DNA from: an uncultured Chloroflexia bacterium | Lineage (GTDB): Bacteria; Chloroflexota; Anaerolineae; Anaerolineales; UBA4823 | DNA length: 64,000 nucleotides | Assembly (NCBI GenBank): GCA_963777965.1 | Contig: CAVZSS010000018.1 | Location: 64,928 to 128,927, forward strand | Direction of reading: 5' to 3' | In this document: in pieces, positions 6,623-60,625 of the stretch | Layout of the letters: every line of letters starts with the position of its first letter | Position numbering within the stretch: position 1 is the first letter of the stretch | The notes under the pieces: generated by a model | What the model saw: only the letters and a program-made list of their open reading frames with translations | Told to the model about the DNA's origin: nothing | Database searches by the model: none | Position numbers and translations under genes: made by a program

Positions 6623-6635
6623 TCACTCCGCAGGT

Positions 6636-9137: not shown

Positions 9138-9140
9138 CAG

Positions 9141-9429: not shown

Positions 9430-9430
9430 G

Positions 9431-9503: not shown

Positions 9504-9516
9504 GGAGAGCGACGGA

Positions 9517-24127: not shown

Positions 24128-26437
<2,310 letters not shown>

Positions 26438-29356: not shown

Positions 29357-29438
29357 AATTTCCCTTTATCAAAGGACAATTTTGGTTTAATTTATCCAAA
29401 CCGTATTATAACGCTTCTTATTTGAGGGGAAACAAACC

Positions 29439-31183: not shown

Positions 31184-31210
31184 TTTATTTGTAGCGGAGC
31201 CTTGTATCAG

Positions 31211-33066: not shown

Positions 33067-34869
33067 ATGACCTCTGAACATATTCGTAACTTCTGCATCA
33101 TTGCCCATATTGATCACGGCAAGTCCACGCTGGCCGACCGCTTGCTGCATCTCACCGGCACGGTCTCGGACCGCGATACCACGGAGCAGATCCTGGACAG
33201 CATGGACCTGGAACGTGAGAAGGGTGTGACAATCAAGGCTTCCGCCGTGCGCATGAACTACACCACCAAGGATGGTGAAATATTCGAATTAAACCTGATC
33301 GATACGCCCGGGCACGTGGATTTCGGGTATGAAGTCAGCCGAGCCTTGGAGGCTTGCGAAGGCGCATTACTGGTGGTGGATGCCAGCCAGGGGATCGAAG
33401 CCCAGACCCTCGCCAATCTTTATAGCGCGCTGGAAGCTGACCTGGAAATCATCCCGATCATCAACAAGATCGACCTGCCCTCAGCCAGACCGGATGAAGT
33501 GGCGCAGGATATCAGCAGCCTCTTGGGCACACCTCCAGGCGAGATCATACGCATTTCCGCCAAGGAAGGGACCAACATCGATGCGGTACTGGAAGTAATC
33601 GTCAGGGAAATACCTCCACCCAAAGGGGACGATAATGCCCCTTTAAGTGCGCTGATATTCGATTCACATTATGATTCTTACAAAGGGGTGGTCGCCTACG
33701 TGCGCTTGATGGATGGCACCATCAACCACACCGATATCCTGCATTTGATGGCTACTGGTTTTGATATTAAGCCAGTTGAGATTGGAATTTTTGCCCCAGA
33801 TTTGCGGCCTGTTCCCACGTTGATGGCGGGTGAAGTGGGTTATATCGCCACCGGGCTGAAGACAGTTCACGAGTGCCGGGTGGGTGATACGATCACAAGC
33901 GCGACCAATCCTGCTCCTTCCCCACTGCCTGGTTACCGCAAGGTAAAGCCGATGGTTTTCGCGGGGATTTACCCGGTGGAGGGTGAGGATTACGCCAACC
34001 TGAAGGATGCGTTGGAAAAATTGCAACTTAATGACGCCTCCCTGGTATATGAGCCTGAAACCTCCCAGGCGCTCAACTTCGGCTTCCGTTGCGGCTTCCT
34101 GGGGATGTTCCATATGGAGATCATCCAGGAACGTTTGGAACGCGAGTACAACCTGGATATCATTGTCACCTCACCATCGGTGGAATACGAAGTAGTGCTT
34201 CAAACGGGCGAGACCATCCTGATCGACTCTCCAGCTGATCTACCAGATGAAATGCTGATCGAGCAGGTTCGTGAACCGTGGATGAACATCGAAATCTTCA
34301 GCCCCACTGAATTTTATGGGGTGATCATGGAGTTGACCAAGAAAAAGCGCGGTGTGTTCATCTCGCAGGATTATCCTGCCCCCAACCGGGTGCAGCTGAA
34401 TTTTCAAATCCCACTCTCTGAGCTGATCGTTGATTTCTTTGACCTGTTGAAATCGCGCACGCGAGGCTACGCCTCGCTGGACTACCAATTTGCAGAGTAT
34501 CGGCCGGACGACTTGGTCAAGCTTGAGATCCTGGTCAATGAAGAGCCGGTGGACGCCCTGGCGACGATAGTCCACCGGGATGATGCTTATCACAAGGGGC
34601 AAGCTGTCATTACCAAACTTAAAGACGTGATTCCCCGCCAGTTATTCCTGGTGCCTATCCAGGCATACGCTGCCGGGCGTGTCATCTCGCGCGCCAATAT
34701 AAAGCCGATGCGGAAAGACGTGCTTGCCAAGTGTTATGGAGGCGATATCTCGCGTAAGAAGAAGCTGTTGGAAAAGCAAAAACGCGGCAAGAAACGCATG
34801 AAGATGGTTGGGAATGTCGAAATTCCCCAGGAGGCTTTTCTAGCGGTATTGCGCATTGGGGAGGAGTAA
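33067..34869 (+). CDS. lepA: elongation factor 4 (LepA)
   Basis: [35 protein letters not shown], and a C-terminal LepA domain. Confidence 0.97.
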
Positions 34870-35881
34870 GATCACTAATTCTTCAACCAGGAACAATTGG
34901 AAGCGCATTCTGCCTGGCCTGATCGTCAGCGTGGTTGCCTTGGCTGTGATAATTTCCATGCTGGATTTTAAAAAGTTTGCCCAGGTATTATTACAGGCTG
35001 ATTTACGCTTTATTTTATTAGGGATTGGTGCCTCATTACTTTGGTTGATTATCCGGGGATTTGTCTGGCGCACACTGTTGCTCAACAGGGCTTCCTACCG
35101 CGACTCCTTTCTGACAATAAACGAAGGATACCTGTTGAATAATATTCTCCCATTCCGGCTTGGAGAGATTGCGCGGGCGTTTCTCATGAGCCGCAAGGCA
35201 GGCATGAATTTTTGGCAGGTCATCCCTTCCATAATTATTGAACGCTCATTAGACCTGGCATTTGCTGCCGGCTTGTTTTTATGCACCTTACCCCTTGTTA
35301 TTGGTGTCCCTTGGGCTCAGCAGGCGGCAATAGGTATCGGCATTGTCGTGATAATCGGGTTGGGACTATTTTATATCCTGGCACGCAGCCGGGAGCGCGT
35401 CTTGGATTGGGTGGCTAAGATGGGTGAGCGCTTCAGCCTGATGAAAAAGCTGGCAGGCCGGCGTGTGATCGCTTTTTTTGACGGGCTGGCGATATTGACC
35501 GATGGCAGGTTATTCCTAAAAGCATTAGGTTGGGAAGGCCTCAATTGGCTTGTGGGAATCTTGATGTACTATTTATTTTTACACGCATTTTTCCCCCATC
35601 CAAGCTTGCTCTGGGTGATTTTTACAGTGGGCGTAGGCGCGCTTGGCATCGCTTTACCTTCCTCTCCGGGGGCGATCGGGGTGTACGAGGCTGCCTTGGT
35701 GGGGGCGCTGGCTGTCTTTGGGCTGGAGACATCTGTAACCTTTGCCTTTGCACTATCCATGCATATCATCAGTTATTTAATCACCGGGTTGATTGGCGGG
35801 TACGCCTTATACAAGGATGGCGAATCTCTTTCCAGTATGTATTCACGGCTTGGGAAGATGAAAACTGAAGGAGAGGCGTAG
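34856..35881 (+). CDS. flippase-like membrane protein (UPF0104 / lysyl-PG-synthase TM-region family)
   Basis: 8-TM ORF with [16 protein letters not shown] and [12 protein letters not shown], both typical of PF03706-type proteins (family name from memory). Confidence 0.7.
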
Positions 35882-35932
35882 AGCTGGAAAGGGTGAGACA
35901 TTATCCCACTCTGATCCGTCATTCTTATTAGC

Positions 35933-37087
35933 ATGCGAATATTAACCGCCCTCACCTATTACCGCCCATATTATTCCGGGCTGACGATATATGCTGAAAG
36001 GCTTGCCCGTGCCCTGGTGGGACGTGGTCATCAAGTGACCGTTTTGACCTCGCGTTATGACCCCAGCTTGCCTGCCCGAGAGCTTCTTGACGGCGTGCAG
36101 GTCATTCGCTCATACATATTAATGAATATCAGCAAGGGCGTGCTCATGCCTACAATGTTCTATTCGGCATGGGTAAATATCCAGAAAGCGGATGTCGTTC
36201 ACCTGCACCTGCCACAGCTGGATGCCGCATACATTGCATGGATTGGCCACCTGCTCAAGAAACCTGCTGTACTTACCTACCATTGTGACCTGCTCCTTCC
36301 ACCAGGGTTAATTCATTCCTTTGCCAACCATGTATCTCACTTGGCTAACAAAATATCTATGCGCTATGCCAACCAGGTGGTGGTGAACACAATGGATTAT
36401 GCGGAACAATCTTTATTTTTACGTCAATACCTCCCAAAAATCCGTGCCATACCAACCCCGGTGGAGCTGTTGACCCCGACCCAGGCAGATGAACACTCCT
36501 TGAAGCTCAAAGCCGGAGTGGAGCCGGGGCAGCGTATCATTGGCATGGTAGCCCGACTGGCAGCCGAGAAAGGGGTGGAATACCTGGCAGGAGCGATGCC
36601 AGAAATCCTAAAAAAACACCCGAATGCACGCGTGTTGTATGTTGGGCAATTTCAAAATGTGTTGGGTGAGGAGGTTTATATAAATAAGCTGCGCCCGATG
36701 ATCGATGCCTTGGGTGACCGGTGGACATTCCTGGGGATATTGCCCCCTGGGGAGCTGGCTGCTTTTTACCGGCAATGTGATGTAACCGTCTTGCCCAGCA
36801 CAAACAGCACTGAATCGTTTGGAATTGTGCAGGTGGAGTCGATGTCCTACGGAACACCCGTAGTTGCTTCCGATCTACCTGGTGTGCGCCAACCGGTGAA
36901 GATGACTGGTATGGGGCGCGTGGTACCTCCGGCCGATGCACACGCCTTGGCTGAGGGGATCAGTGAAGTGCTGTCCCACCCCGAACAGTATAACGGGGAT
37001 GTGGATGCTCTGATTAATACATATTCTCCTCAACATACCGCACAGGAGTACGAGTCAGTTTTTCAGGAAGTGCTCAGAAACCGTTAA
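35933..37087 (+). CDS. glycosyltransferase family 4 (GT-B)
   Basis: MRILTALTYYRPYYSGL N-terminus and the E-x7-E region ESFGIVQVESMSYGTPVVASD. Confidence 0.85.
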   Translation: MRILTALTYYRPYYSGLTIYAERLARALVGRGHQVTVLTSRYDPSLPARELLDGVQVIRSYILMNISKGVLMPTMFYSAWVNIQKADVVHLHLPQLDAAYIAWIGHLLKKPAVLTYHCDLLLPPGLIHSFANHVSHLANKISMRYANQVVVNTMDYAEQSLFLRQYLPKIRAIPTPVELLTPTQADEHSLKLKAGVEPGQRIIGMVARLAAEKGVEYLAGAMPEILKKHPNARVLYVGQFQNVLGEEVYINKLRPMIDALGDRWTFLGILPPGELAAFYRQCDVTVLPSTNSTESFGIVQVESMSYGTPVVASDLPGVRQPVKMTGMGRVVPPADAHALAEGISEVLSHPEQYNGDVDALINTYSPQHTAQEYESVFQEVLRNR

Positions 37088-37151
37088 ATTACCATGCAGC
37101 AGGATCGCGATTTTCGTACGAATACCATTGTGACTCAATGCCCAAACATCT

Positions 37152-37937
37152 ATGGATAATAAAGACTTCTTGTGGTTAAACCTGCGTGACCTGCCATATT
37201 TCCGAGCCATGCTCAGGGCGGTGGAAGCACGGTTTTATCAAGACCTTGAGCTGGATGCGCCGACACTCGACCTTGGTTGTGGAGATGGTCATTTTGCTTC
37301 CATTACCTTCGACCGTAAATTGGAGGTGGGATTAGATCCGTGGGCGGGTCCGATCCAACAGGCATCTAAAAGTGGCGGATATTGCTCACTCGTTCAGGCA
37401 GACGGGGGCAGGATTCCCTTCCCGGATGGGTACTTTGCCAGCGCTCTCAGCAACTCAGTGCTTGAACACATCCCACAGGTCCAGGCTGTATTGGCAGAGT
37501 TGCGGCGGGTGTTGAAGCCTGGGGCACAATTTTTATTCTGTGTACCCAACCCGCGTTACCTGAGTGAGCTATCCATCCCGGCAATGCTTGCAAAGGTTGG
37601 ATTGAAGGCTACCGGTCAGGCATACAGGGATTGGTTCCGGCGCATGTCACGCGTTGAGCACGCCGAATGGCCTGAGACCTGGCAGAATTGGCTCGAATGT
37701 GCTGGTTTTCGGTTGGAAAAATGGTGGCATTATTTTTCACCCCAGGCGATGCGTGCGCTGGAATGGGGTCACTACTTGGGTGCTCCCACGCTGCTTCCCC
37801 ACGCCGTCAGCAAGAAATGGATCATTGCTCCCTGGCGTTGGAGTTTATTCCTGACCGAGCGATACGCAAGGAGGTACACGGTTGCCGAGCCAGATTCTCA
37901 AGGGACTTTCACATTTTATGTTTCCAGAAGTATCTAG
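37152..37937 (+). CDS. class I SAM-dependent methyltransferase
   Basis: Motif I LDLGCGDGHF, plus post-I and post-II regions (VLEHIP, LKPGAQFLF). Confidence 0.8.
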   Translation: MDNKDFLWLNLRDLPYFRAMLRAVEARFYQDLELDAPTLDLGCGDGHFASITFDRKLEVGLDPWAGPIQQASKSGGYCSLVQADGGRIPFPDGYFASALSNSVLEHIPQVQAVLAELRRVLKPGAQFLFCVPNPRYLSELSIPAMLAKVGLKATGQAYRDWFRRMSRVEHAEWPETWQNWLECAGFRLEKWWHYFSPQAMRALEWGHYLGAPTLLPHAVSKKWIIAPWRWSLFLTERYARRYTVAEPDSQGTFTFYVSRSI

Positions 37938-37942
37938 CCTCC

Positions 37943-38683
37943 ATGAGCCAAACCGATTCTAAAGGCCAGCCTTTCAATCAAGATTACTTCTCTACCGGGC
38001 CATATGCAGGGGTAGACTTTACCCGTTACAGCCAATACTGGTGGTCAAACCGGTACTATGCCAGGCTTGCTCAGCGGTATGGACCGCCCCAGGGGAAGGT
38101 ACTGGAGCTGGGTTGTGGAATGGGACACCTGCTGGCATGGTTGGTAGAACGGTACCATGTCTTTGGGTGTGATATCAACGCATGGGCCTTAGCCCAGGCC
38201 AGGTTGAACGTGCCCCAAGGAAATTTTATCCTGCTTTCTGGCGACATGCCCTACACCTTCCAGGAGGCAGTTTTTAATATTGTAATTGCTAAACATGTCG
38301 TTGAGCATCTAGCTCGCCCTGAGCAGGCGCTCGCTGAGATGGCACGTGTGCTTAAACCGGGTGGTTTGCTGATTCTGGTAACCCCAAATCTCAGCTCACC
38401 GATGCGTGAGCGAAAAAAGGGGGATTGGATCGGCTACAAGGATCCCACTCACATCAGCCTGAAACCTCCGGAAGAGTGGCTTACGTCCCTGCGTTGCCAC
38501 GGGTTGCGTCCTCGCAAGGTATTCTCAGACGGTTTTTGGGATGCCCCGTATATCCCGATTGTTCCTAGCGCCCTTCAAAAGCTGGTCTTCGGCTTTCCAG
38601 GGGGCTTGCAAGCTATTCTTGGATGGAGTATTATTCCCCTTCGTATGGGTGAAAGCTTGATCATCCTGGCGGAAAAAGCATGA
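37943..38683 (+). CDS. class I SAM-dependent methyltransferase
   Basis: Start ATG 37943 (MSQTDSKGQPF...). Motif I LELGCGMGHL, plus VVEHLARP and LKPGGLLILV. The longer ORF-track start at 37688 lies inside the previous gene. Confidence 0.8.
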   Translation: MSQTDSKGQPFNQDYFSTGPYAGVDFTRYSQYWWSNRYYARLAQRYGPPQGKVLELGCGMGHLLAWLVERYHVFGCDINAWALAQARLNVPQGNFILLSGDMPYTFQEAVFNIVIAKHVVEHLARPEQALAEMARVLKPGGLLILVTPNLSSPMRERKKGDWIGYKDPTHISLKPPEEWLTSLRCHGLRPRKVFSDGFWDAPYIPIVPSALQKLVFGFPGGLQAILGWSIIPLRMGESLIILAEKA

Positions 38684-40875
38684 ATCACGAGCCATCGGTT
38701 CTGGATTACGTAAAATCAATTTTTCGTGGGAAACCTATTAAGATTCCTGCCGCAGACGAATCAGCGTTGCCTTCTCAGCCATTGGTAGAACAGCCTCTAG
38801 AGCAGCCTGTTATGGCAGATGAACAGGCAGCGCCTGCTCCAGCCCCAGAAGTTCCTGCGAGAAGGTTCACCCTTCCTTGGCGCTCACTGTTGGCGCTTGG
38901 GCTGGCAATGGCAGCTCAAATTTCTCTAGAGCCTGGCGCTAACCGCACCTGGATGCCTGGAGTCATTTTGTATGTGCTGTCTGCTGCTTGCTTGGTTTGG
39001 GCGGTCTTGAAAGGAGAATTGAGCCCCACCGAACTGCCCGAAGAGCAAGGCAAAAATGAAGATTACCGGGTGCGCGCCCGATGGCTGTACATCAGCCTGC
39101 CCCTTGCTCTGGCAGCATTCCTCACCCTGGGAGGCAACCGCTTTAACGCCCTGAATGTCACTTTATGGGTGCTCGCAGCCATTTTTACATGCCTGGCGTT
39201 TTGGCAGGGGGAATATCCATTTATTGGTTGGTGGCGATGGCTGAAAGAACATTTTCACCTGCCCTGGAAGTTGTCCATCCCAGCCTGGACGTTGCTGGTG
39301 GTGGCATCTGTCCTTCTGGTGTTGTTCTTTCGTGCGTATCGGATCGACCAGGTGCCACCTGAGATGGTCAGTGACCATGCAGAGAAGTTGTTGGATGTTT
39401 GGGATGTCCTGCATGGGCAGACCAGCATTTTCTTCCCGCGTAATACCGGGCGTGAAGCTCTCCAGATGTATTTGACTGCAGGTATTATCCAATTTTTACG
39501 CACAGGCTATACATTCCTCAGCCTGAAGATTGGCATGCTCCTGGCAGGCTTGTTGACTTTGCCTTATCTATACCTGCTGGGGAAAGAACTAGGCAATAAA
39601 CGGGTGGGTTTATTTGCCCTGTTGTTTGCAGGCATGGCATACTGGCCGAATGTCATCTCACGCGTGGGGCTGCGTTTTTCACTCTACCCCCTGTTTGTCG
39701 CTCCTGTGTTGTATTACTTGATTTGTGGGATTTGTACTTCCAACCGCAACGATTTCATCCTGGCAGGTCTGTTTTTGGGAATCGGCTTGCATGGATACGT
39801 ACCCATCCGCATTCTGCCGATCGTCATACTGATCATCATCGGAACGTATTTGTTGCACCCCCAGGCCCGAGATAAGCGTATGCAGACCGTATCTGGCTTG
39901 CTGGTTCTGATCCTGGTATCGTTGATCATCTTCTTACCGTTATTACGATTTGCGATTGAATACCCTACCATTTTTGACCTGCGGGCACTCTCCCGCCTTG
40001 GGACGACGGAACGCCCATTGCCTGGTCCTGCGCTGATAATCTTCCTTAAAAACCTGTGGAATGCCTCAACCATGTACTTCTGGTCGGATGGCCAAATCTG
40101 GGTACATTCGGTCACCAACCGCCCTGCCTTGGATGTCATTTCTGCTGGATTGTACTTTCTGGGGGTAGTTCTTTTAATCGCCAGGTATGTCAGGCAACGC
40201 ATCTGGCAGGATTTGGTCCTGCTCTTTACGGTTCCCTTGTTAACGTTGCCTTCCATCCTTTCACTGGCTTTTCCAGACGAGAACCCAGCCCTGAATAGGG
40301 CTTCGGGTGCCATCATTCCGGTTTTTTTGATCATCGCGATTGCCCTGGATGGGCTGATGTCGGGTGTCGAAAGGCGAGTACCATCCAAGGCTGGGGCGAC
40401 TCTATCCTGGGCAATGGCAGTTATGTTGATCCTGATATCGGCGTTGGGTAATTATGACCTGGTTTTCAACCAATACCAGCGTTCATATGAATTATCATCC
40501 TGGAACACCTCAGAAATGGGTGAAGTGGTGCGTGATTTTGGGACAATGTACGGGAGCACTGAGACTGCCTATGTGGTGCCATACCCGTATTGGGTGGATA
40601 CGCGCCTGGTTGGTATGAATGCTGGCGACCCGACCCGCGATTATGCCATCCCACCTGATCAAATCTCTGCCACATTGAGCGACTTCCGCCCCAAGATGTT
40701 CCTTGTAAATCTTGAAGATCAAACAGGCCTGGGCTTGCTGCGCCAACTTTTCCCTCAAGGGTATCTTTCAACGTATCCATCGAAAGTTGGAAAGGATTTT
40801 TATATTTACATGGTGCCGCCCGCATCAAACAGTCCCGATGGAATTCCTGACGCAGGTTGGACAACCTCACCATAG
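38680..40875 (+). CDS. GT-C-fold (ArnT/PMT-like) polytopic membrane glycosyltransferase-like protein
   Basis: 731 aa with at least 12 TM segments. The first extracytoplasmic loop RIDQVPPEMVSDHAEKLLDVWDVLHG resembles the DE...HG loop of GT39/TIGR03663-like proteins. A C-terminal soluble domain follows. Confidence 0.6.
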   Translation: MNHEPSVLDYVKSIFRGKPIKIPAADESALPSQPLVEQPLEQPVMADEQAAPAPAPEVPARRFTLPWRSLLALGLAMAAQISLEPGANRTWMPGVILYVLSAACLVWAVLKGELSPTELPEEQGKNEDYRVRARWLYISLPLALAAFLTLGGNRFNALNVTLWVLAAIFTCLAFWQGEYPFIGWWRWLKEHFHLPWKLSIPAWTLLVVASVLLVLFFRAYRIDQVPPEMVSDHAEKLLDVWDVLHGQTSIFFPRNTGREALQMYLTAGIIQFLRTGYTFLSLKIGMLLAGLLTLPYLYLLGKELGNKRVGLFALLFAGMAYWPNVISRVGLRFSLYPLFVAPVLYYLICGICTSNRNDFILAGLFLGIGLHGYVPIRILPIVILIIIGTYLLHPQARDKRMQTVSGLLVLILVSLIIFLPLLRFAIEYPTIFDLRALSRLGTTERPLPGPALIIFLKNLWNASTMYFWSDGQIWVHSVTNRPALDVISAGLYFLGVVLLIARYVRQRIWQDLVLLFTVPLLTLPSILSLAFPDENPALNRASGAIIPVFLIIAIALDGLMSGVERRVPSKAGATLSWAMAVMLILISALGNYDLVFNQYQRSYELSSWNTSEMGEVVRDFGTMYGSTETAYVVPYPYWVDTRLVGMNAGDPTRDYAIPPDQISATLSDFRPKMFLVNLEDQTGLGLLRQLFPQGYLSTYPSKVGKDFYIYMVPPASNSPDGIPDAGWTTSP

Positions 40876-40902
40876 GCCGCTTCTTGTAAAAATACTACAT
40901 CA

Positions 40903-43900: not shown

Positions 43901-45570
43901 GCGGCACCTGGTCGGATTTGTTTAACTCGCAGGGATGGCAGAACCGCTACCAGGTACTGGGGGTTATCGCCTGGTATATTTCAGTAAGCTTGTTGGGCTT
44001 GCTGGTGTATCCCCTGCTGAGAGTTACCCTGCCTGGCTTACCTGACCATGGATATCCACTCATCCGCACGGCCGGGATGCTAGTTTTGGCTTACTTTACC
44101 TGGCTGGCGGGATCGGTAAACATTCCCTTCAATCGGCTGACGATCACAATTGTGATTCTGCTGATTGCCATGCTTGGAGCTTTCTCTGGCTTATCGCCAG
44201 CGGATGAACTACGCAAGGAATGGCATTCAAAACGGGGATATTTCCTGATCATTGAAGGTTTAGTCCTGGCATTCTTCCTCATTTTCCTGTTCATCCGCTT
44301 AGGAAATCCCGATCTATGGCACCCATGGAAGGGTGGCGAGAAGCCGATGGATTTTTCCTATTTCAATGCTGTATTAAAAAGCACAACCTTTCCACCTTAC
44401 GATCCTTGGTACGCCGGTGGATACATGAATTACTATTATTGGGGCTATGTCTTTGTGGGTGTGCTGGTTAAGGAATTGGGCATCGTCCCGTCGTTTGCAT
44501 ATAACCTGATCATCCCCACCCTTTTCTGTATGGTCACGATGGGAGCATTCTCCATCGGTTACAACCTGAGCCGCTCACGCAGCATGGAGGACAAATCTCC
44601 AGGCACAGAGATTGATGGACTGTCACCTCCAAAATCCAAATGGCAGCCTTACCTTATTGGGCTGGCAGCTGCATTTGGCATGTCTATCCTCGGCAACCTG
44701 GGCACGATACGCATGATCATTAAAGGCTGGCAGCAGATAGGTGTTCCAGGTGGGTTGACCGAAAGCACTGGTTTCTTCACCCGCTTAATGGGCGTGCCTC
44801 TCGGGCTGTATCAAAACGTGATCCAGGGTGCAAAAATGCCTTATAGCATAGGAGATTGGTATTGGCTTCCAAGCCGGGCGATTCCCGCCCCAGGTGATGT
44901 GGAACCGATTACCGAGTTTCCCCTATTCACTTTTCTCTATGGAGACCTGCATGCTCACATGATTGCCCTGGCAATTGCCATGCTTGCCCTCACCTGGGTG
45001 GTGGCTGTGCTGATGGGCAAAGCACGCTGGCAGAATATTGGGGTGGGGGTTATGGGTATCCTCTTGGGCGGCCTGGCAATTGGAGCTCTCTACCCGACCA
45101 ATCTATCCGATATCTATACCTACCTGCCCATCGGGATGGTTGTTTTTGGATACGCCATATTCCGTTATGCGGATGTTGGTATTTTTTCCAGGTTACCGCA
45201 GGTCAGCCTCACCTTAAAACGCCTCATCCTGGCTGGTACCGGGATGCTCTTGCTGGTTGTGGCTGCTTATGGTTTATATCTTCCTTACCGGTTATGGTAT
45301 GCCCAGGGGTACAGCTCAATCATTCCCTGGTTTGGAACCCACACGCCTCTTTGGGCATACTTGACCCATTGGGGTTTATTCCTTTTTGTGATCGTTTCCT
45401 GGATGGTCTGGGAAACCCGCCAATGGATGGCATATACACCGCTTACCTCCTTGCGCAAGCTTGAAAAATTCAGCGGGTTAATCATCCTGCTATTGGTCAT
45501 CCTCTTCCTGGTCTGCCTGCTCTTAAGTATCAGGATACCCGGAATAGAAAGCACTCAGCTTGCTGAGTAA
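40903..45570 (+). CDS. very large membrane protein: GT-C-like N-terminus, ~500-aa soluble middle, Chlor_Arch_YYY (DUF2298) domain
   Basis: 1555-aa ORF with HPDERFLIW in the first loop, then later WKGGEKPMDFSYFNAVLKSTTFPPYDPWYAGGYMNYYYWGYVFVG, the YYY signature. Confidence 0.75.
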   Translation: MITPDSMNDGMPAPPGQVAPKKKIRWVTPFIFDVLLLFVLLFGGLFRFVGLKWGDWQYLHPDERFLIWVGTDIQPIGTPAEALGTPPNSDNIPYRTAFGDAYPDCETWGGYFDASCSPLNPNNRGHSFYVYGTLPMFLTRYVVQWIYGHAGFNEMTVVGRVFSAMVDFLAILLVYAIGSRVFNKPVGLLAAAFSAFTVLNIQQSHFFTMDTFSNFFTLLAVYFAVRIGLTEGISTVDQGQNLDRLLSGSTDIEDNSGPQTFLSRITQFIKHPFFGFSVAFGIALGCAVASKLNSAPVAFVLPVAFGVILWKKSAHERTGWLVKAVVYMGIAAFVSILVFRIFQPYAFYGPGFFGVRPNPQWVANIKEQRNQAAGDVDFPPSLQWARRPVWFSAQNLIEWGLGIPLGILAFIGFIWAGWRMIKGDWTRHILLWLWGGFYFTWQSLQFNPTMRYQMPTYPILVIYAGWAVVEIWNYRKQTKNQGFTEASNPRRLTPGWPRWVSILVGGAVLIATFLWAFSFSQIYSRPITRVAASDWIYQNIPGPINLHIQGKDETYNQPLSIPYGSTVQPGVPYQMMFTANASGTLNEVYLAHILDIQALQPAALNVTLAGFPDGTVPLMSAVIAVSPPKVDDASPAGYQLNFNTPVAVEAGQVYYLLLTLAAGEQALDACGAVGFIIKTPTELMTQTVAGSEQCVISLETPFVLAINPLESGLLEGVVLSKLDDHTPASTPKTLQLTIGSSGDDQVIATASLTADFTQGAESGGAGYTMLLNHPVNLEKGNNYRLSLALESDRGMISVRGSAVANEGDWDDGLPLRVDGYDAFGGIYPPGLNFNMYTDDSLEKLEHFINIYDQAEYILVSSNRQWGSLPRLPERFPMTTLHYRHLLGCPENRSIYWCYSVAQPGIFHGDLGFDLVEIFQSDPVIGSLPINDQFAEEAFTVYDHPKVLVFHKNEAYNTEQANKILSQANFTEMVRITPKKAAYHPANLKFPDTRLAAQTDGGTWSDLFNSQGWQNRYQVLGVIAWYISVSLLGLLVYPLLRVTLPGLPDHGYPLIRTAGMLVLAYFTWLAGSVNIPFNRLTITIVILLIAMLGAFSGLSPADELRKEWHSKRGYFLIIEGLVLAFFLIFLFIRLGNPDLWHPWKGGEKPMDFSYFNAVLKSTTFPPYDPWYAGGYMNYYYWGYVFVGVLVKELGIVPSFAYNLIIPTLFCMVTMGAFSIGYNLSRSRSMEDKSPGTEIDGLSPPKSKWQPYLIGLAAAFGMSILGNLGTIRMIIKGWQQIGVPGGLTESTGFFTRLMGVPLGLYQNVIQGAKMPYSIGDWYWLPSRAIPAPGDVEPITEFPLFTFLYGDLHAHMIALAIAMLALTWVVAVLMGKARWQNIGVGVMGILLGGLAIGALYPTNLSDIYTYLPIGMVVFGYAIFRYADVGIFSRLPQVSLTLKRLILAGTGMLLLVVAAYGLYLPYRLWYAQGYSSIIPWFGTHTPLWAYLTHWGLFLFVIVSWMVWETRQWMAYTPLTSLRKLEKFSGLIILLLVILFLVCLLLSIRIPGIESTQLAE

Positions 45571-45578
45571 ATTACCCT

Positions 45579-46493
45579 TTGGGAGAGGCGCAACCCTGGC
45601 TTGGGTTATCCTGCCGCTTGGCCACCTGGGCGGGGGTCTTGCTGATACGACCAGGGATGCCGGATGCCAAGCGGCTGGTCCTTTTTTGGGTGGGGACCGG
45701 GCTGTTAATCACGTTAATGGTCGAAGTGGTCGTGGTCAGGGGAGATATTGGCCGCATGAATACCGTGTTCAAGTTCTACCTGCATTCGTGGGTGCTGTTT
45801 GCCTTGAGCGCAGCGGCTGCCCTTGGCTGGTTGCTCGAGCCGGTCCGCCATTGGCTTACAGGTTGGCGGGTTGCCTGGCGGGTGGTATTCGCAGCCCTGG
45901 TAATTTGCACTGCCCTGTTCACCCTGTATGGCAGCTTGGCGAAGATTCAAGACCGTTGGGTACCCAACGCGCCTCATACCCTGGACGGTATGGCTTATAT
46001 GCCATTCACCTCGTATTATGAGAGTTATCCAAAGGTTAGCGAGTCAGCACCGGTTGATGCAGAAGGTATAACCATGGATTTAAGCCAGGATTACCGCGCC
46101 ATCCGCTGGATGCAGGAAAATATCCAGGGCTCACCTGTGATTGTGGAAGCCATCTCTCGTAATTTATACCGCTGGTATACTCGTTTTACCATCAACACCG
46201 GCCTGCCTGGGGTAGTCGGTTGGGAATGGCATGAGCAGCAGCAGCGTGCTGTCAATCCGCCCGATTGGGTAACAAAGCGGGTGAGTGATATTGATCAGTT
46301 CTATAATACTGTGGATACAGACATAACCAGGCAATTTATAAACTTGTACGGAGTGAAATATATCGTCCTTGGGCAGCTCGAAGGTGTCACCTATCCCGGA
46401 CCTGGGCTCGATAAATTCCCGGCTTTTAACGGCATCTTATGGAATGAGGTTTACCGGGATGCAAACACGGTCATCTATGAGGTGATTCAATGA
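45579..46493 (+). CDS. C-terminal module of YYY-domain protein (TM segments + soluble domain), separate ORF in this assembly
   Basis: 304-aa ORF containing RGDIGRMNTVFKFYLHSW. It is paralogous to 48237..49136 (DSFGVRMNTVFKFYYQAW), and both share GWEWHEQQQR / GWAVHESQWR. Confidence 0.65.
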   Translation: MGEAQPWLGLSCRLATWAGVLLIRPGMPDAKRLVLFWVGTGLLITLMVEVVVVRGDIGRMNTVFKFYLHSWVLFALSAAAALGWLLEPVRHWLTGWRVAWRVVFAALVICTALFTLYGSLAKIQDRWVPNAPHTLDGMAYMPFTSYYESYPKVSESAPVDAEGITMDLSQDYRAIRWMQENIQGSPVIVEAISRNLYRWYTRFTINTGLPGVVGWEWHEQQQRAVNPPDWVTKRVSDIDQFYNTVDTDITRQFINLYGVKYIVLGQLEGVTYPGPGLDKFPAFNGILWNEVYRDANTVIYEVIQ

Positions 46494-48307
46494 TCCAGGT
46501 ATTGGTTTGGTGGTTGATCATGCAGGTGCTGGGTTGGTTGGCATTTCCAACCGCTATGCGTATTTTCCGCTGGCTGCCTGATCGTGGTTATACGTTTTCC
46601 AAATCGCTTGGGCTATTATTGATCAGCTATATCCTGTGGATCGGGGCAAGCACCGGCCTGTTAGCCAACAACCTGGGGGGTATCCTGTTTTCCATTATTA
46701 TCCTGGCAGGTATCTCCGCCTGGTTTTACTTTCGCTGCAAGGGCAGCCTTCTCCCGGATATACGGGTATTTGTGCGCGATAAATGGAAGCTGATCCTGAC
46801 AGTTGAGCTGCTTTTTGCACTTGCCCTGGTGGGATGGTCATTATTGCGAGCATACGCTCCATATAAAATCGAGCCTACCGGTGGCGAAAAGTTTATGGAA
46901 ATCGCCTTCCAGAATGCCATTTTACGCAGTGAAAACTTCCCGCCACTAGATTCTTGGTTGTCAGGCTTTGCAATCTCTTATTATTACTTTGGTTACACAA
47001 TGATGGCACTGCTGACACGCTTGTCTGGAGCGGTCCCTGGTGTGGGATTTGACCTGTATGATGCCCTGCTTTTCGCCCTCGCTCTGATCGGGTCATTTGG
47101 GGTCGTGTATAACCTGGTGGCATTCACGCGCCAGTCTCGTCGTAAGCAAGACGAAGCTGCTCCACGCCAGGGCCCACCCCTGGCGGCAGGTATATTGGGT
47201 GGGTTGTTGGTTACAGTGATGGGCAACCTGGAAGGTGCGCTGGAATCATTGCATGCCTGGGGAGTGCTACCTGAAAGATTTTGGGCCTGGATTGATATCC
47301 CTGGATTGGCAGGCGCACCTGTAATTCACTCCTGGTACCCCGGTGAGGTGTTCATGTGGTGGTGGCGCGCTTCGCGTGTCTTGGCTGATAAAAATCTTAC
47401 TGGGCTGGATATGGGCGTTCAACCCATCGACGAATTCCCCTTTTTTAGCTTCCTGTTGGGTGATAACCACCCGCATGTTCTGGCACTGCCATTTGTCTTA
47501 TTGGCAATCGGGCTGGCTCTGAATCTATTTTTACGGCAGACGAGCAAGGCAGGGAATGTCTCAACAAACGCTAGCGATGGTTTCGAACCTATCAACCTCA
47601 GGCAGTGGTGGAATCCACCCGCTTTTACCCTCGCTAACGATTGGATGCTGTTTATTTTCTCTGCCTTGATCCTTGGTGCGTTGGGCTTCTTGAATACCTG
47701 GGACCTGCCGATTTACCTGGGTTTGGTGATGCTGGCTTATGGTTTGGGTGCTCTCATGGTGAAAGGCCGCCTGGATCGAGATGTCATCTTACGCTCTATG
47801 ATCCTCGGCCTGGGCTTGGGAATCCTTTCGGGGCTGATGTATGCCTTTTTCTACCTTAGTTTTAGCTCGCAAGCTGCGGGTATCTTGCCTTATATCTTCC
47901 CTCCCACACGTTTGCCTCAATATCTGGTCATGTTTGGCACCTTCATCTTCCTTGTGGCAAGCTTCCTGGTGATTTACTTAATAAAACAAAGCCACGAAAA
48001 TGGCGGGGTAATAAAATCAGCCTTAAACTGGTTGTGGCGCATCCTCTTGATATGTATCGGATCATATTTGGTGATCCAGTTATTAATTGCCCTGGTGCTC
48101 TTCCTCCAGAAATTGATACCGGACAGCACGATGCTGGTAACCATCCAATCCGTACTGGGTGGGTACAGCTTAGGCCAGGCTTTTATTGCCAGTGTGAGCG
48201 CCCGGTTGCGCGACCCTTGGCTCTTGCTGATGATTTGTGCTCTGCTGGCACTGGTCATGGCTAACCTGGGCAGCTTGCTGCGTCGAACGTGCAAAGCCTG
48301 GGGATGA
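46490..48307 (+). CDS. Chlor_Arch_YYY (DUF2298) domain membrane protein
   Basis: 605 aa with GGEKFMEIAFQNAILRSENFPPLDSWLSGFAISYYYFGYTMMALL and DEFPFFSFLLGDNHPH. Confidence 0.8.
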   Translation: MIQVLVWWLIMQVLGWLAFPTAMRIFRWLPDRGYTFSKSLGLLLISYILWIGASTGLLANNLGGILFSIIILAGISAWFYFRCKGSLLPDIRVFVRDKWKLILTVELLFALALVGWSLLRAYAPYKIEPTGGEKFMEIAFQNAILRSENFPPLDSWLSGFAISYYYFGYTMMALLTRLSGAVPGVGFDLYDALLFALALIGSFGVVYNLVAFTRQSRRKQDEAAPRQGPPLAAGILGGLLVTVMGNLEGALESLHAWGVLPERFWAWIDIPGLAGAPVIHSWYPGEVFMWWWRASRVLADKNLTGLDMGVQPIDEFPFFSFLLGDNHPHVLALPFVLLAIGLALNLFLRQTSKAGNVSTNASDGFEPINLRQWWNPPAFTLANDWMLFIFSALILGALGFLNTWDLPIYLGLVMLAYGLGALMVKGRLDRDVILRSMILGLGLGILSGLMYAFFYLSFSSQAAGILPYIFPPTRLPQYLVMFGTFIFLVASFLVIYLIKQSHENGGVIKSALNWLWRILLICIGSYLVIQLLIALVLFLQKLIPDSTMLVTIQSVLGGYSLGQAFIASVSARLRDPWLLLMICALLALVMANLGSLLRRTCKAWG

Positions 48308-49136
48308 GGTAACAGAGGACGTTACATCCGCGCACACTATCAGCAGTGACCCATTTGTTTTCCTGCTCATCTTTACCGGCCTGGCGCTTACCCTGATCGT
48401 TGAGTTTATCTACCTCCGTGATAGCTTCGGTGTGCGTATGAACACTGTGTTTAAGTTCTACTACCAGGCATGGGTGATGCTGGGTTGTGCCAGCGCCTAT
48501 GCTGTTTGGTGGATTTTGAACCGCTTGGAGAGACCAGCCAGCCGTCTCCTGTTCTTGCTTGTAGCTGTTATTTTAATTGGCCTTGGAATGGTTTATCCGC
48601 TAATGGCTATCCCCAGCCGGGCAGCTGATTTTAAAGGACCAGCCAACTTGGATGGAGCAAGCACGGTGGCCAGGAATAATCCCGACGATTGGGCTGCCAT
48701 CCAGTGGTTGAATGAAAATGCCCTCGAAGGTCTCCCATCTGGGAAGGTGCCGGTCATCCTGGAAGCACCCAGTGTCCCACCGGGGGGCGGCTCATATACC
48801 TACGAGGGCAGGATCAGCGCTTTTAGCGGCTTCCCCACCTTGCTCGGATGGGCGGTTCACGAAAGCCAGTGGCGCGGTAATTATGACGAGCAAGGCAAAC
48901 GTGAACCCGACATTGCCACCATCTATACCACCTCAGATGCCCAAACCGCCTTGGATTTGCTGCACAAGTGGAATGTGAGTTATCTCATTCTCGGCAGCCC
49001 TGAGCTCAGCTATATTCAACGTTTATGCAGCCAGCCTGAGCGAGGTTGCACCATGAGCACTGCCCTGCGAAAGTTTGAGCGTGTGTTTCAGCCCGTCTTT
49101 AGCCAGGGGCAGACGACAATCTACAGGGTTCCATAA
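48237..49136 (+). CDS. C-terminal module of the second YYY-domain protein, separate overlapping ORF in this assembly
   Basis: 299-aa ORF overlapping the previous one by 71 nt in another frame. The only in-frame start is GTG 48237. It is a paralog of 45579..46493. Confidence 0.65.
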   Translation: MLCWHWSWLTWAACCVERAKPGDEVTEDVTSAHTISSDPFVFLLIFTGLALTLIVEFIYLRDSFGVRMNTVFKFYYQAWVMLGCASAYAVWWILNRLERPASRLLFLLVAVILIGLGMVYPLMAIPSRAADFKGPANLDGASTVARNNPDDWAAIQWLNENALEGLPSGKVPVILEAPSVPPGGGSYTYEGRISAFSGFPTLLGWAVHESQWRGNYDEQGKREPDIATIYTTSDAQTALDLLHKWNVSYLILGSPELSYIQRLCSQPERGCTMSTALRKFERVFQPVFSQGQTTIYRVP

Positions 49137-49152
49137 GTGCTATTCGTAATAA

Positions 49153-49431
49153 ATAATTGAAGGGTTAGCCGCTCAGGACGACAGCCCAACTTTACTGCGA
49201 GGAACGGCCACCTTTACCGCGACGATAAAGGACGGCACCAGCGTGCTCTACACCTGGGATTTTGATGCTGGGATCACGATGACCGGGCAGGTGGTGGCAC
49301 ATGTCTATCAATTCCCCGGGGAGTATGCTGTTACTGTAACGGCTACGAATTCTCTGGGCTTTGTAAGTGCTGAGACGGTGGCGGTCATTAAGCCATTGAG
49401 CTTTTTCTTTCCGTTCACATTCAAGGTATAG
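49153..49431 (+). pseudogene. orphan PKD-domain fragment (no start codon, no signal peptide)
   Basis: The frame opens at 49153 and reads ...PTLLRGTATFTATIKDGTSVLYTWDFDAGITMTGQVVAHVYQFPGEYAVTVTATNSLGFVSAETVAVIKP. This is one PKD repeat (WDFGDG-like, HxY, GxYxVxLxxTN). Confidence 0.5.
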
Positions 49432-49457
49432 GATTTACCTTTTCTCAGATCGTCCAT

Positions 49458-49490
49458 GGGGTTGGCAATAATTTGCCAACCCCGAAACTT
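49458..49490 (+). terminator. perfect 11-bp hairpin terminator
   Basis: GGGGTTGGCAA-TAAT-TTGCCAACCCC followed by GAAACTTTT. Confidence 0.55.
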
Positions 49491-49523
49491 TTAATACTGA
49501 GGGTATAATACGGTCGATAATTT

Positions 49524-51293
49524 ATGAAAGAATATAAAATCACGACTGAGAATTTGTTGTATTGGCTGGCTTTCTTGCTTGCCCTGGGCATGCGCTTCTT
49601 CATGCTCGGTGATACCCCACTTGCAGACGCCGAAGCCAGCTGGGCTCTTCAAGCCTTGGGCCTGGTGCATGGTGAAACCGCAGCCTTGGGAGCGCAGCCT
49701 GCGTATATCCTGCTCACTAGCCAGCTTTTCTCCATCTTCGGCGACACCAATTTCCTGGCACGCTTCCTCCCCGCTATGGCTGGCAGTCTGATCATCTGGT
49801 TGCCTTATTATTTCAGGGATTGGATGGGAGATTCGCGCTGGCTTCGACGGGCAGGTCTGATCATGGCTTTCGGTCTGGCGATTGACCCGGGTCTGGTATC
49901 TCTCTCCCGGCAAGCTGGCAGCCTGATGCCCGCCATGACATTCACCTTATTGGGGCTTGCTAGTCTTTACAATCGGCGTATGGTCTGGGCTGGCATCTTA
50001 GCCGGGTTGGCCCTGCTCTCAGGAATGGCATTCTTGCAAGGGGTTCTCATCCTGGGGATAAGCTGGGGTTTCTATCGCCTGGCATGGCGGAAGTCTTTCC
50101 AAGCTCAAAGGGGTGAATTTGATCGTGAGCCACCTACGGAATCGATTTCTTCCAGGTCTATAATGGTTTTGCTTGCAGCTTTGGCGGGGACTGTACTTGC
50201 TGTTGGAACGCTTTTCCTGCGTTTCCCGGGGGGTTTAGGGGCATTGGCAGAAACGATCCCGGCTTTCATAAATGCCTGGATAAAACCGTCCGGGATTCCC
50301 GTCCTTCGCCTGCCTGCCAGCCTGTTGGTATACCAGCCGATGCTATTGATCTTTGGCCTGTTTGGCGCAGTGCACATCTGGTTTGGGGTTCCTGATGATC
50401 AGCGCATTCGCCAATTCGTATCGGGATTAAGCATCTGGACAGTGGTGGCTTTGCTATTACCATTGCTCTATGCTGGCCGGCAGGTGGGTGACATGGCATG
50501 GGCACTGATCCCTCTTTGGGCATTGACCGCAGTCGAGATCAGCCGCTTGTTGATCACCGAGCTGGAAGATTCATTGACGCGCCTGGTTGCCGCTGGCCTG
50601 GGAGTGCTTCTCTTTGTCCTGGCAGTTGTTAGCTGGATCAATTTACTCGCCATTGGTCGTTACCAGGTGAACGTGGTAGTCTATTGGGCGATTATCATTG
50701 GAGCGTTCCTGCTGGGGTTTATCGCCTTTTTATTGGTGGCTGTGGCATGGTCTACATCCGCCGCCAGGATAGGCGCAGTAGGTGCACTCTGCCTCATTTT
50801 CGGGTTGTGGTTGTTTTCCAATTCATGGGGAATGGCCATCGTGCGGAAAAATGGCGCTCAGGAGTTGTGGCCAATTCCAGCGACCACCGGACAGGCTGAT
50901 TTGCTTAACGATACACTATCTGACCTATCCAGCTGGGACACAGGTCTAAAAGACCAGTTGGAAATTGTTACGTTGGTGGATTCACCAGCCCTCAAATGGG
51001 ATTTGCGGCACTTTCCAAATGTCCGTTTTGGGTCTACGCTATCTGCCGATGAAACTCCAGCGGTTGTCATCACCCCTAAAGATGCCGATTTTCCCAGCCT
51101 ATCAGAAAAATACCGCGGCCAGGATTTCATCTGGAAGCTTACCCCAGGCTGGCAGGGGGTTTTTCCACCCAACCTGATTAACTGGCTGGCGTTTCGCCAG
51201 GCTCCGTTAAACCAGGAACTGATTATTCTCTGGGCAAGGTCAGATATCTTCCCAGGTAGCACATCAAGCAAATCCGATAGTATTATTCCATAA
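49524..51293 (+). CDS. GT-C-like polytopic membrane protein (TIGR03663-like partner of YYY proteins)
   Basis: 589 aa. N-terminal RFFMLGDTPLADAEASWALQALGLVHGE loop, about 12 TM segments and a C-terminal soluble domain. The family assignment is from memory of the TIGR03662/TIGR03663 pairing. Confidence 0.55.
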   Translation: MKEYKITTENLLYWLAFLLALGMRFFMLGDTPLADAEASWALQALGLVHGETAALGAQPAYILLTSQLFSIFGDTNFLARFLPAMAGSLIIWLPYYFRDWMGDSRWLRRAGLIMAFGLAIDPGLVSLSRQAGSLMPAMTFTLLGLASLYNRRMVWAGILAGLALLSGMAFLQGVLILGISWGFYRLAWRKSFQAQRGEFDREPPTESISSRSIMVLLAALAGTVLAVGTLFLRFPGGLGALAETIPAFINAWIKPSGIPVLRLPASLLVYQPMLLIFGLFGAVHIWFGVPDDQRIRQFVSGLSIWTVVALLLPLLYAGRQVGDMAWALIPLWALTAVEISRLLITELEDSLTRLVAAGLGVLLFVLAVVSWINLLAIGRYQVNVVVYWAIIIGAFLLGFIAFLLVAVAWSTSAARIGAVGALCLIFGLWLFSNSWGMAIVRKNGAQELWPIPATTGQADLLNDTLSDLSSWDTGLKDQLEIVTLVDSPALKWDLRHFPNVRFGSTLSADETPAVVITPKDADFPSLSEKYRGQDFIWKLTPGWQGVFPPNLINWLAFRQAPLNQELIILWARSDIFPGSTSSKSDSIIP

Positions 51294-51310
51294 CAATAAT
51301 AAATCCGGGA

Positions 51311-52728: not shown

Positions 52729-52836
52729 ACGTACGGTTTGGAAAAAATATAGAAGAAGTTTTGTTTTATCCGCATTATGGTGTCTACATACATGCTATAA
52801 TCATTTGAGCTAATCACCCTATGTTATTCCACCGAT

Positions 52837-56320: not shown

Positions 56321-60625
<4,305 letters not shown>

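Follow-up and report, generated by a model that had tools for sequence, protein, structure and literature searches.

A conserved Anaerolineae locus with two YYY/DUF2298 modules as a candidate system for cell-envelope glycan assembly

What does a bacterium build with a run of glycosyltransferase (GT)-like membrane genes centered on two paralogs of the YYY family (DUF2298, PF10060, TIGR03662)? This question is raised by a locus in the 64,000-nucleotide stretch of DNA analyzed here, hereafter the window, which comes from an uncultured bacterium of the Anaerolineales (Chloroflexota). One YYY module forms the C-terminal part of a very large protein (the giant) and the other is a protein of its own (YYY2). 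An earlier note on this DNA had suggested that the locus assembles a methylated glycan. We found eight genes at this position, with a core that is conserved across the class Anaerolineae, and we propose with moderate confidence that they assemble a cell-envelope glycoconjugate in two stages. Sludge, sediments, and soils are rich in the filamentous bacteria of the Anaerolineae, whose envelope chemistry is almost undescribed, and the locus is a class-wide candidate builder of their surface glycan.

Gene content and conservation of the locus

The open reading frame (ORF) listing of the window showed a plus-strand run without interruption from 34856 to 51293. The run is flanked by housekeeping genes, LepA (33067-34869) upstream and Cmk (cytidylate kinase) and a PlsC-type acyltransferase downstream. 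The intergenic distances along the cluster were +51, +64, +5, -4, +27, -4, +387, and +17 nt, which agreed with the earlier description of co-directional, tightly packed genes, the spacings being mostly -4 to +64 nt. Searches with Pfam and NCBIfam hidden Markov models (HMMs) confirmed the families and the gene order previously given for this region (Table 1). However, the cluster holds eight genes, not ten; the "C-terminal modules" that had been counted as separate genes are the frameshifted tails of both YYY genes, which were repaired as described below. Only one spacer in the cluster is long, the 387 nt (49137-49523) that separate YYY2 from the 589-aa gene. In relatives, this spacer ranged from -213 to +485 nt, with a few longer, and in L001 (related loci are numbered with L, related proteins with P) a 45-aa minus-strand ORF was called inside it. 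An Rfam scan of the window returned one tRNA only, located outside the cluster.

The conservation of the locus was examined in other genomes. A scan of one genome per species gave at least 588 relatives of YYY2, and the best 80 were almost all labelled Chloroflexota, mostly class Anaerolineae, including Anaerolineales, Thermoflexales, Caldilineales, Ardenticatenia, Promineifilaceae, and Roseilinea. For the neighborhoods, six-frame ORFs of 82 loci were searched with the window proteins, and counts refer to loci with enough flanking sequence. Of 53 loci, 44 encoded, upstream of YYY2 and on its strand, a giant-like protein that combines PMT_2 and YYY modules; 43 of these have the PMT_2-like N module. 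Downstream of YYY2, 52 of 66 loci encoded a 589-aa-like protein. The triad of the giant, YYY2, and the Agl23-like 589-aa protein is conserved across the class Anaerolineae. The full order of LepA, PplT, GT4, cassette, PMT_2, giant, YYY2, ~590-aa protein, Cmk, and PlsC was present in L001, L002, L085, and L086 and persisted at 38-40% YYY2 identity in L052, L056, and L058. Thus, the synteny on which the earlier note had staked its reading was kept in relatives, and the YYY and GT-C assignments on which it also depended held in the HMM searches.

The first genes of the cluster encode a flippase-like protein, a GT4 enzyme, and two S-adenosylmethionine (SAM) methyltransferases. The flippase-like protein scored 148.5 bits with PF03706 (cutoff, 33.4) and 82.8 bits with TIGR00374 (cutoff, 43.2). 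Its gene starts either at 34856, with a TTG codon that overlaps the LepA stop, or further downstream, and it adjoins the GT4 gene in L001, L002, L085, and L086. The GT4 protein reached no cutoff among the NCBIfam equivalogs; the best was MshA (77.5 bits versus 462), and the GpgS-type GlcNAc-PG synthase model NF053787 gave 40.6 bits versus a cutoff of 480. Methyltransferase 2 probably starts at ATG 37943 (246 aa) rather than at the ORF start of 37688 (331 aa), because, among the start codons examined, this one matches the 246-aa orthologue in L002.

The methyltransferases and the following 731-aa GT-C gene form a cassette that varies between strains. From UbiA to PlsC, all genes of the window were 95 to 99% identical to those of L001 at the protein level except methyltransferases 1 and 2 and the 731-aa GT-C protein. 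The blastn high-scoring segment pairs against L001 stopped at 37309 and restarted at 40450. The breakpoints lie inside the methyltransferase 1 gene, whose 5' part marks the start of the cassette, and near the 3' end of the 731-aa GT-C gene; the replaced segment in L001 is 6040-9529, and the replacement is recombination-like. Methyltransferase 1 was 57% identical to its L001 counterpart, and methyltransferase 2 is replaced there by a Methyltransf_21 gene. The 731-aa protein showed 54% identity to its L001 counterpart versus 71 to 77% to more distant genomes, and the cassette proteins of the window were in general closer (71 to 79%) to more distant genomes than to L001. The corresponding slot of L085 is occupied by NTP_transferase, SIS, GHMP kinase, and Methyltransf_3 genes, a set that resembles a nucleoside diphosphate (NDP)-heptose pathway. 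A swap of sugar-modifying genes together with one transferase between near-identical strains would be expected of a locus for a surface-exposed glycan, and the strain-variable cassette implies selection at the cell surface.

Table 1. Positions of the locus features and of the upstream UbiA-family gene in the window
Feature	Coordinates	Strand	Basis
UbiA-family decaprenyl-phosphate phosphoribosyltransferase-like gene	31211-32098	-	NF008977, NF008978
PplT/UPF0104 (LPG_synthase_TM) flippase-like membrane protein	34856-35881	+	PF03706, TIGR00374; ~7 transmembrane helices (TM) by hydropathy
GT4 (GT-B) cytoplasmic glycosyltransferase, generic subtype	35933-37087	+	PF00534, 110 bits; PF13439, 68.7 bits
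SAM methyltransferase 1 (Methyltransf_11)	37152-37937	+	PF08241, 63.3 bits
Strain-variable cassette (methyltransferases and 731-aa GT-C)	37310-40449		Not alignable to 96%-identical L001
SAM methyltransferase 2 (Methyltransf_11/23), probable start	37943-38683	+	PF08241, 69.7 bits
PMT_2-type GT-C membrane glycosyltransferase, 731 aa, ~11 TM, in variable cassette	38680-40875	+	PF13231
Giant, one gene, ~1856 aa	40903-46493	+	PMT_2 and PF10060; collinear orthologues; repaired ORF
Second YYY/DUF2298 protein (YYY2), one gene, 881 aa	46490-49136	+	TIGR03662, PF10060; repaired ORF
589-aa polytopic protein, putative distant PMT_2/Agl23-like GT-C relative	49524-51293	+	TIGR03663 sub-threshold; hhalign

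Predicted folds of the membrane modules

The assignment of both paralogs to the YYY family was supported by the family models. PF10060 (cutoff, 27.8) gave 306.6 bits for the giant and 301.2 bits for YYY2. TIGR03662 (cutoff, 300.25) gave 500.1 bits for the repaired YYY2 and 468.1 bits for P0001, the giant orthologue, each in a single stretch covering positions 2/3-726 of 727; the unrepaired window ORFs scored 262.1 + 201.3 and 279.7 + 214.6 bits, none of which reached the cutoff. The YYY signature given in the earlier note is present in the giant as FPPYDPWYAGGYMNYYYWGY (NYYY at 44431-44439) and in YYY2 as FPPLDSWLSGFAISYYYFGY (YYY at 46979-46987), and the YYYxG motif that names the family reads NYYYWGY from 44431 and SYYYFGY from 46979. 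By hhalign, the YYY module of the giant and that of YYY2 are homologous (100%). Across 365 YYY modules, 68 conserved positions were common to all three YYY classes. These include E133, K134, D154, Y164, Y165, Y166, G168, R296, E315, D325, H327, H329, N402, D405, E638, R649, and K655, as well as a C-terminal GWxxH[EQ]xQ motif, and the conserved residues are all intact in the window proteins.

YYY2 has ~16 TM followed by a C-terminal alpha/beta domain of ~170 aa. The helix ends in its structural model and the positive-inside count were compatible with an N-out protein of 16 TM; the count, 15 K/R per 96 residues inside versus 6 per 75 outside, was the sole basis of the orientation. With this orientation, the conserved residues, all found in loops or at helix ends, and the C-terminal domain are compatible with a location outside the membrane, a pattern that would suit an active site on the outer face, like that of GT-C enzymes. 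An AlphaFold2 model of a 96%-identical YYY2 orthologue (predicted local distance difference test [pLDDT], 73; predicted TM-score [pTM], 0.81) was compared with the PDB by using Foldseek. The significant matches were all to GT-C enzymes: the top seven were AglB (E, 1e-4) and DPY19 (4e-4) with probabilities of 0.97 to 1.00, and the C-terminal domain matched the C-terminal globular domain of AglB-S2 (probability, 1.00; TMt, 0.42 to 0.51). This result suggests a GT-C fold for the YYY module, although more weakly than for the N module of the giant described below.

Metagenomic proteins also carry these modules as fusions. P0293 and P0324 (2434 and 2445 aa) consist of a PMT_2-type N module and two YYY modules, and P0298 (1722 aa) consists of two YYY modules. 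These fused chains support the idea that the two YYY modules work together. The DUF2298/TIGR03662 family comprises ~8,000 clusters at 50% identity. Our literature search on DUF2298 and TIGR03662 found no paper on their function, incidental mentions only, which agrees with the earlier statement that the YYY family has no assigned function; papers on the "Y_Y_Y domain" concern a different domain. A Chloroflexi DUF2298 gene has been listed beside PMT2 proteins (PMC8756737). In a Lachnospiraceae plasmid (Pseudobutyrivibrio), a DUF2298 gene lies within a polysaccharide cluster that also carries GT2s and an O-antigen-ligase-family gene; a Halarchaeum plasmid match was uninformative. The present analysis provides the family with a testable role and candidate catalytic residues.

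The giant is composed of an N-terminal PMT_2-type GT-C module (TM at 25-512), a soluble beta-rich and alpha/beta region (~535-1005), and a YYY/DUF2298 module (1012-1856). In the 1555-aa ORF read in the window, PMT_2 was matched at residues 153-226 and DUF2298 at 1061-1542, and the 304-aa ORF that follows matched the end of DUF2298, as did the 299-aa ORF behind the 605-aa DUF2298 ORF of YYY2. PF13231 (PMT_2; cutoff, 26.1) was exceeded marginally by the 731-aa protein (35.0 bits), the giant (27.3), and the N fragment of the giant (29.3). Residues 1-1005 of the giant were modeled by AlphaFold2 (pLDDT, 77; pTM, 0.68) with a helical membrane part at 21-533, a beta-rich part at 538-800, and an alpha/beta part at 816-960. 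In the Foldseek search of the PDB with the N module, all 33 matches with an E value of <1e-3 were GT-C enzymes, including AglB (8.6e-9), Pmt4, STT3, EmbA/B/C, ArnT, ALG9/12, and PglB; AftA was matched at 7.9e-3, and Pmt1/2 was also among the structural matches. The module also has an invariant HPDERF motif (D56-E57) in its first loop, which is predicted to be extracytoplasmic. The predicted structure thus firmly supports a GT-C fold for the N module, as the earlier note had expected of the giant. The 731-aa protein has a conserved acidic first loop, PPEMxSDHAEK (E228, D232, E235, and D239), and showed no meaningful sequence match to PDB chains. In the YYY modules, E133 and D154 are the conserved acidic residues in a putatively extracytoplasmic loop after an early helix. 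In hhalign comparisons, the 731-aa protein matched the N module of the giant at 98.2% and the 589-aa protein at 95.9%, and the third pair of the three modules gave 72%, which indicates by profile similarity that all three are mutually homologous.

The 589-aa protein had been described as GT-C-like, and a TIGR03663-like partner of the YYY family had been mentioned. Its only family match was to TIGR03663, at 47.6 bits versus a cutoff of 126.25, and all 47 of its 47 orthologues matched TIGR03663 alone, all below threshold with a best E value of 1e-16; most are annotated as "hypothetical protein." No Pfam match was found, and sequence and profile searches against PDB chains gave nothing meaningful. 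By sequence, the protein is therefore a distant relative of TIGR03663 and not a member. A lenient Pfam scan of YYY2, the 589-aa protein, and the middle domain of the giant returned a sub-threshold DUF4082 alone. The protein carries DxE in place of the DE of the Agl23 family and DPG in place of HGP. We take it from the TIGRFAMs description that TIGR03663 members are encoded beside a TIGR03662 (YYY) gene. The locus provides a bacterial setting for this YYY-Agl23 pairing, otherwise known from Archaea. The earlier view that TIGR03663 also has no assigned function does not hold, since the family is now named Agl23 and described as flippase-activity-associated on the basis of genetic and in vitro data from Haloarcula hispanica, where it was reported as a hexose-phosphate-dolichol flippase or a flippase-associated protein (PMC11182771).

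Proposed pathway, alternatives, and neighboring genes

We propose that the glycoconjugate is built from the inside outward. At the cytoplasmic face, GT4 would transfer a sugar from a nucleotide sugar to a membrane lipid, the two SAM methyltransferases would modify the lipid-linked sugar (an alternative cassette doing so in other strains), and PplT/UPF0104 would move the lipid-linked product to the outer leaflet. At the outer face, five GT-C-type modules, namely, the 731-aa PMT_2 protein, the giant N module, the two YYY modules, and the Agl23-like 589-aa protein, are predicted from fold and conserved residues to carry out further transfers. They would extend the primer or pass it to a final acceptor with polyprenyl-phosphate-linked sugars as donors. 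In place of such a transfer, or besides it, the Agl23-like protein may flip a polyprenyl-phosphate-sugar donor. The two YYY modules probably act as a pair, and the glycan is probably held by the beta-rich soluble domain of the giant while it grows. As the likeliest product, we propose a wall polysaccharide or lipoglycan of a monoderm filament that varies between strains.

The first stage has precedents in the literature. GT4 is paired with UPF0104 in the glycolipid operons gpgSDF of Pseudomonas aeruginosa and hexSDF of Clostridioides difficile, and the same PplT domain moves lipid in MprF, with a like role proposed in gpgSDF (PMC12713373). GT-B-PplT fusions have been reported in Chloroflexi (bioRxiv 2022.03.11.483950), and archaeal neighborhoods with UPF0104, GT, and PMT/STT3-like genes have been given a predicted role in glycosylation (PMC5898192). 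The assembly of a methylated glycan, as put forward in the earlier note, is in keeping with the gene content, the cassette swap between strains, and the NDP-heptose-like cassette in L085. The polyprenyl-phosphate carrier suggested there is conjectural for the primer; the best precedents for GT4 with UPF0104 act on glycerolipids (gpgSDF; PMC12713373).

Several observations weigh against the proposed pathway. The cluster has no gene for a polyprenyl-phosphate sugar synthase (GT2), and the two best-documented activities of Agl23 are flipping, not transfer. The structural matches of YYY2 are weak overall (TM-score, ~0.3; E, 1e-4), and its candidate catalytic loops have low pLDDT. No profile-profile link was found between the YYY and PMT_2-type modules (<3% by hhalign), and the YYY modules showed no sequence or profile match to PDB chains. 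The strict operon layout is not universal, since unrelated genes lie between the giant and YYY2 in many distant loci (DUF362, FGE-sulfatase, nuclease, pentapeptide, GH88, TIR, and MscS); among these intervening genes, no additional partner was conserved and none encoded a GT2 donor synthase. A scan for promoter and terminator signals performed no better than shuffled expectation and was uninformative. The UbiA gene, a possible source of donors, is on the opposite strand beyond two housekeeping genes and is unlinked in L086. More generally, what the analysis demonstrates is the gene families, the GT-C fold, the conserved synteny, the cassette swap, and the artifactual nature of the gene splits, whereas the individual reactions of the pathway, its lipid, its sugar donors, and its product are inferred.

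The alternative that survives best, which we consider unlikely, is protein glycosylation, in which the YYY proteins would act like an oligosaccharyltransferase, placing a lipid-linked methylated glycan, made by GT4 and the methyltransferases and then flipped by PplT, on S-layer, sheath, or pilus proteins, while the PMT_2-type enzymes add more sugars to the glycan on the protein. The best PDB matches of YYY2 glycosylate peptides (AglB in N-glycosylation and DPY19 in C-mannosylation), and its polytopic N part with an extracytoplasmic alpha/beta C-terminal domain, which matches the AglB-S2 globular domain, is the architecture of STT3, AglB, and PglB. The PMT_2 family name derives from protein O-mannosyltransferases, and archaeal UPF0104 neighborhoods have been linked to S-layer glycosylation (PMC5898192). 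However, Foldseek rank among GT-C folds is no predictor of the acceptor. PF02516/STT3 was not matched in the Pfam scan even at an E value of ≤10, no sequence match to the AglB, PglB, and STT3 chains in the PDB was found, and the conserved C-terminal motif is GW(x2)H[EQ]xQ, not WWDYG. In addition, five GT-C modules with a large beta-rich domain are closer to polymer builders (Emb/Aft) than to an en bloc transferase, and no candidate acceptor gene is conserved nearby. In a more speculative reading, which we think distinctly unlikely, the two YYY modules, one fused to a PMT_2-type GT-C in the giant and the other on its own, could be an obligate pseudo-heterodimeric GT-C with an AglB-like C-terminal domain. 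This enzyme would be a new kind of oligosaccharyltransferase or polymerase that attaches or builds the principal surface glycan in monoderm Anaerolineae and likewise in archaea with YYY proteins, and the Agl23-like protein would supply the flipped lipid-linked sugar.

The locus might also modify lipid head groups only. GT4 and PplT would then make and flip a small glycolipid, and the GT-C proteins would add one or a few sugars to membrane lipids in the manner of ArnT, tuning envelope charge or rigidity with no polymer formed. GT4-UPF0104 modules are experimentally documented in that role (gpgSDF/hexSDF), ArnT is among the structural matches of the giant N module, and many genomes have the lipid genes PlsC and Cmk beside the locus. 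We give this explanation a small chance, as five GT-C modules, a ~470-aa soluble domain, and a strain-variable cassette with sugar-nucleotide genes would be excessive for it, the GT4 protein is far under the GpgS and MGlcDAG-synthase cutoffs, and a deacetylase is missing. We strongly doubt a further explanation, that the YYY/DUF2298 proteins are transporters or scaffolds (e.g., a glycan exporter or flippase) rather than enzymes, so that transfers are made by the PMT_2-type proteins only. The report of the partner family Agl23 as a flippase despite its GT-C-like sequence, the modest fold match of YYY2 to GT-C, and weak non-GT-C matches to membrane pyrophosphatases and transporters (probability, <0.3) are in line with it. 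In contrast, the dense invariant acidic, His, and Arg/Lys residues in the predicted extracytoplasmic loops and the conserved soluble C-terminal domain are typical of an active site, and only GT-C enzymes were matched at a probability of 1.0.

The split YYY genes were examined by comparison with their orthologues. In the window, the giant is read as ORFs of 1555 and 304 aa and YYY2 as ORFs of 605 and 299 aa. Alignment to L001 revealed 1-nt insertions in the window at 45555, 45620, and 48286, and deletion of the three inserted bases restored stop-free ORFs of 1856 aa (giant) and 881 aa (YYY2). Searches with the 1555-aa and 605-aa ORFs returned single ORFs, nearly all ~1830 to 1872 aa for the giant and ~880 to 897 aa for YYY2. 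By tblastn, P0001, which is 97% identical to the giant, was collinear with the window over the junction with changes of frame, and a three-frame reading placed two shifts 65 nt apart. The rpoC gene (56321-60625) is also split into two ORFs (616 and 809 aa), with the catalytic NADFDGD segment between them in a third frame at ~58160-58200; that an essential gene is broken in this way, by two or more indels, strongly indicates sequencing error. It is hardly credible that the YYY splits are biological (pseudogenes, natural two-part proteins, or programmed frameshifting): the break of both paralogs falls within one variable loop of the TIGR03662 model (~465-478), which at first sight looks non-random, but almost all of the ~240 orthologues listed are single ORFs, the giant requires two separate +1 insertions, the frames after the shifts are still 92 to 99% protein-identical to L001, and the essential rpoC, a pyruvate formate-lyase (PFL)-like gene, and a histidine kinase gene are broken too, as is the cluster in a nanopore-derived genome of the same family. 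Because the orthologues are intact and rpoC and other window genes are broken likewise, programmed frameshifting and pseudogenes were rejected, and the YYY gene splits are assembly errors.

Similar damage was observed elsewhere. The sensor histidine kinase gene (dCache-HAMP-PAS-HisKA-HATPase) is broken into ORFs at 52931-54097, 54148-54630, 54775-55329, and 55232-56155 and is intact in L002 (1101 aa). The breaks are caused by about 10 more 1- to 2-nt insertions relative to L001, at 52945-54496. Every unpaired difference in 51298-54496 is an insertion on the side of the window, a pattern that suggests a systematic error of assembly. The PFL-like glycyl-radical enzyme gene on the minus strand (483-3003) consists of 560-aa and 285-aa ORFs overlapping at 2146-2165, probably also a frameshift error. 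In L017 (the nanopore-derived metagenome-assembled genome MFD00709.bin.2.174), the orthologous cluster lies in dozens of short ORFs, indel damage of the same kind as in the window and more severe. Gene calls from the present assembly should not be taken at face value.

Upstream of LepA, a minus-strand run (28373-32098) encodes the UbiA-family protein, mevalonate kinase, an archaeal-type isopentenyl phosphate kinase, and a dGTPase-like HD protein. UbiA exceeded the cutoffs of NF008977 (249 bits versus 234) and NF008978 (222.3 versus 207) and fell short of a third model (187.4 versus 474). The HMM results confirmed the identities proposed earlier for UbiA and the mvk/ipk genes. These genes were next to the cluster only in the two closest relatives, L001 and L002, and the link of the cluster to a phosphoribosyl or arabinosyl donor is weak because they are absent upstream of LepA in L086; a functional link was therefore not accepted. 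A decaprenylphosphoryl-phosphoribose (DPPR) synthase-like gene that appears co-oriented with genes of the alternative mevalonate pathway is, in a Chloroflexota genome, a puzzle in its own right. Other genes of the window encode a topoisomerase I with an N-terminal DUF5679 domain (24128-26437, plus strand), a 358-aa protein with a C-terminal VKOR domain (10863-11939, minus strand), and a 335-aa ORF with no Pfam match (26655-27662, plus strand).

Comparison with known systems

Next, we compared the locus with characterized glycosylation systems. AglB (STT3/PglB, GT66) was the best PDB match of both YYY2 and the giant N module and has the same layout of a polytopic N part and an extracytoplasmic C-terminal domain. 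In contrast to AglB, YYY2 shows no STT3 Pfam match, no PDB sequence match, and no WWDYG motif, its TM-score is ~0.3, and it has ~16 TM, the conserved loop following TM4 instead of TM1. The PMT/ArnT-type GT-C enzymes (PMT_2, GT39/GT83) share with the cluster the passed PMT_2 threshold, the acidic first loop with HPDERF, and the structural matches to Pmt4, Pmt1/2, and ArnT, but the scores are marginal and there is no MIR domain as in eukaryotic PMTs. The pairing of the 589-aa gene with a YYY gene in most loci parallels Agl23, although the protein is far below the family cutoff and its host is bacterial. The adjoining GT4 and UPF0104/COG0392 genes are arranged as in gpgSDF and hexSDF, and the flippase-like domain (PplT) is that of MprF; the differences from gpgSDF and hexSDF are the lack of a deacetylase, the low GT4 score with the GpgS model, and the five GT-C modules that follow.

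The closest overall analogy, as opposed to membership, is with the mycobacterial machinery for phosphatidylinositol mannosides, lipomannan, and lipoarabinomannan (PIM/LM/LAM) and for arabinogalactan. In mycobacteria and corynebacteria, PimA and PimB (GT4) prime these pathways, PimE, MptA/B, EmbA/B/C, and AftA-D act in them, and the UbiA-family protein Rv3806c is the DPPR synthase. The logic would be the same, with a cytoplasmic GT4 acting on a lipid, flipping, and several outer GT-C enzymes using polyprenyl-phosphate sugars. The mycobacterial GT-C enzymes have large extracytoplasmic domains, as here, and EmbA aligned to the model of the giant N module over 1119 columns. The EmbA-EmbB hetero-pairs parallel the two YYY modules and their fusions, and a DPPR-synthase-like UbiA gene lies near the cluster here. 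The systems differ in that the cluster proteins fall outside the Emb, Aft, and GT87 families, the conserved core DUF2298 is absent from the mycobacterial pathways, the window showed no DprE1 or DprE2, linkage to UbiA is not conserved, and the host belongs to the Chloroflexota.

The protein families of the locus were already catalogued, and the logic of a flippase-like protein, a GT, and a GT-C had been put forward in 2015 as a prediction for Archaea. What appears to be new is a class-wide conserved Anaerolineae locus with five GT-C-type modules, a giant fusion, and a strain-level cassette swap, together with a predicted AglB/DPY19-like fold and candidate active-site residues for DUF2298.

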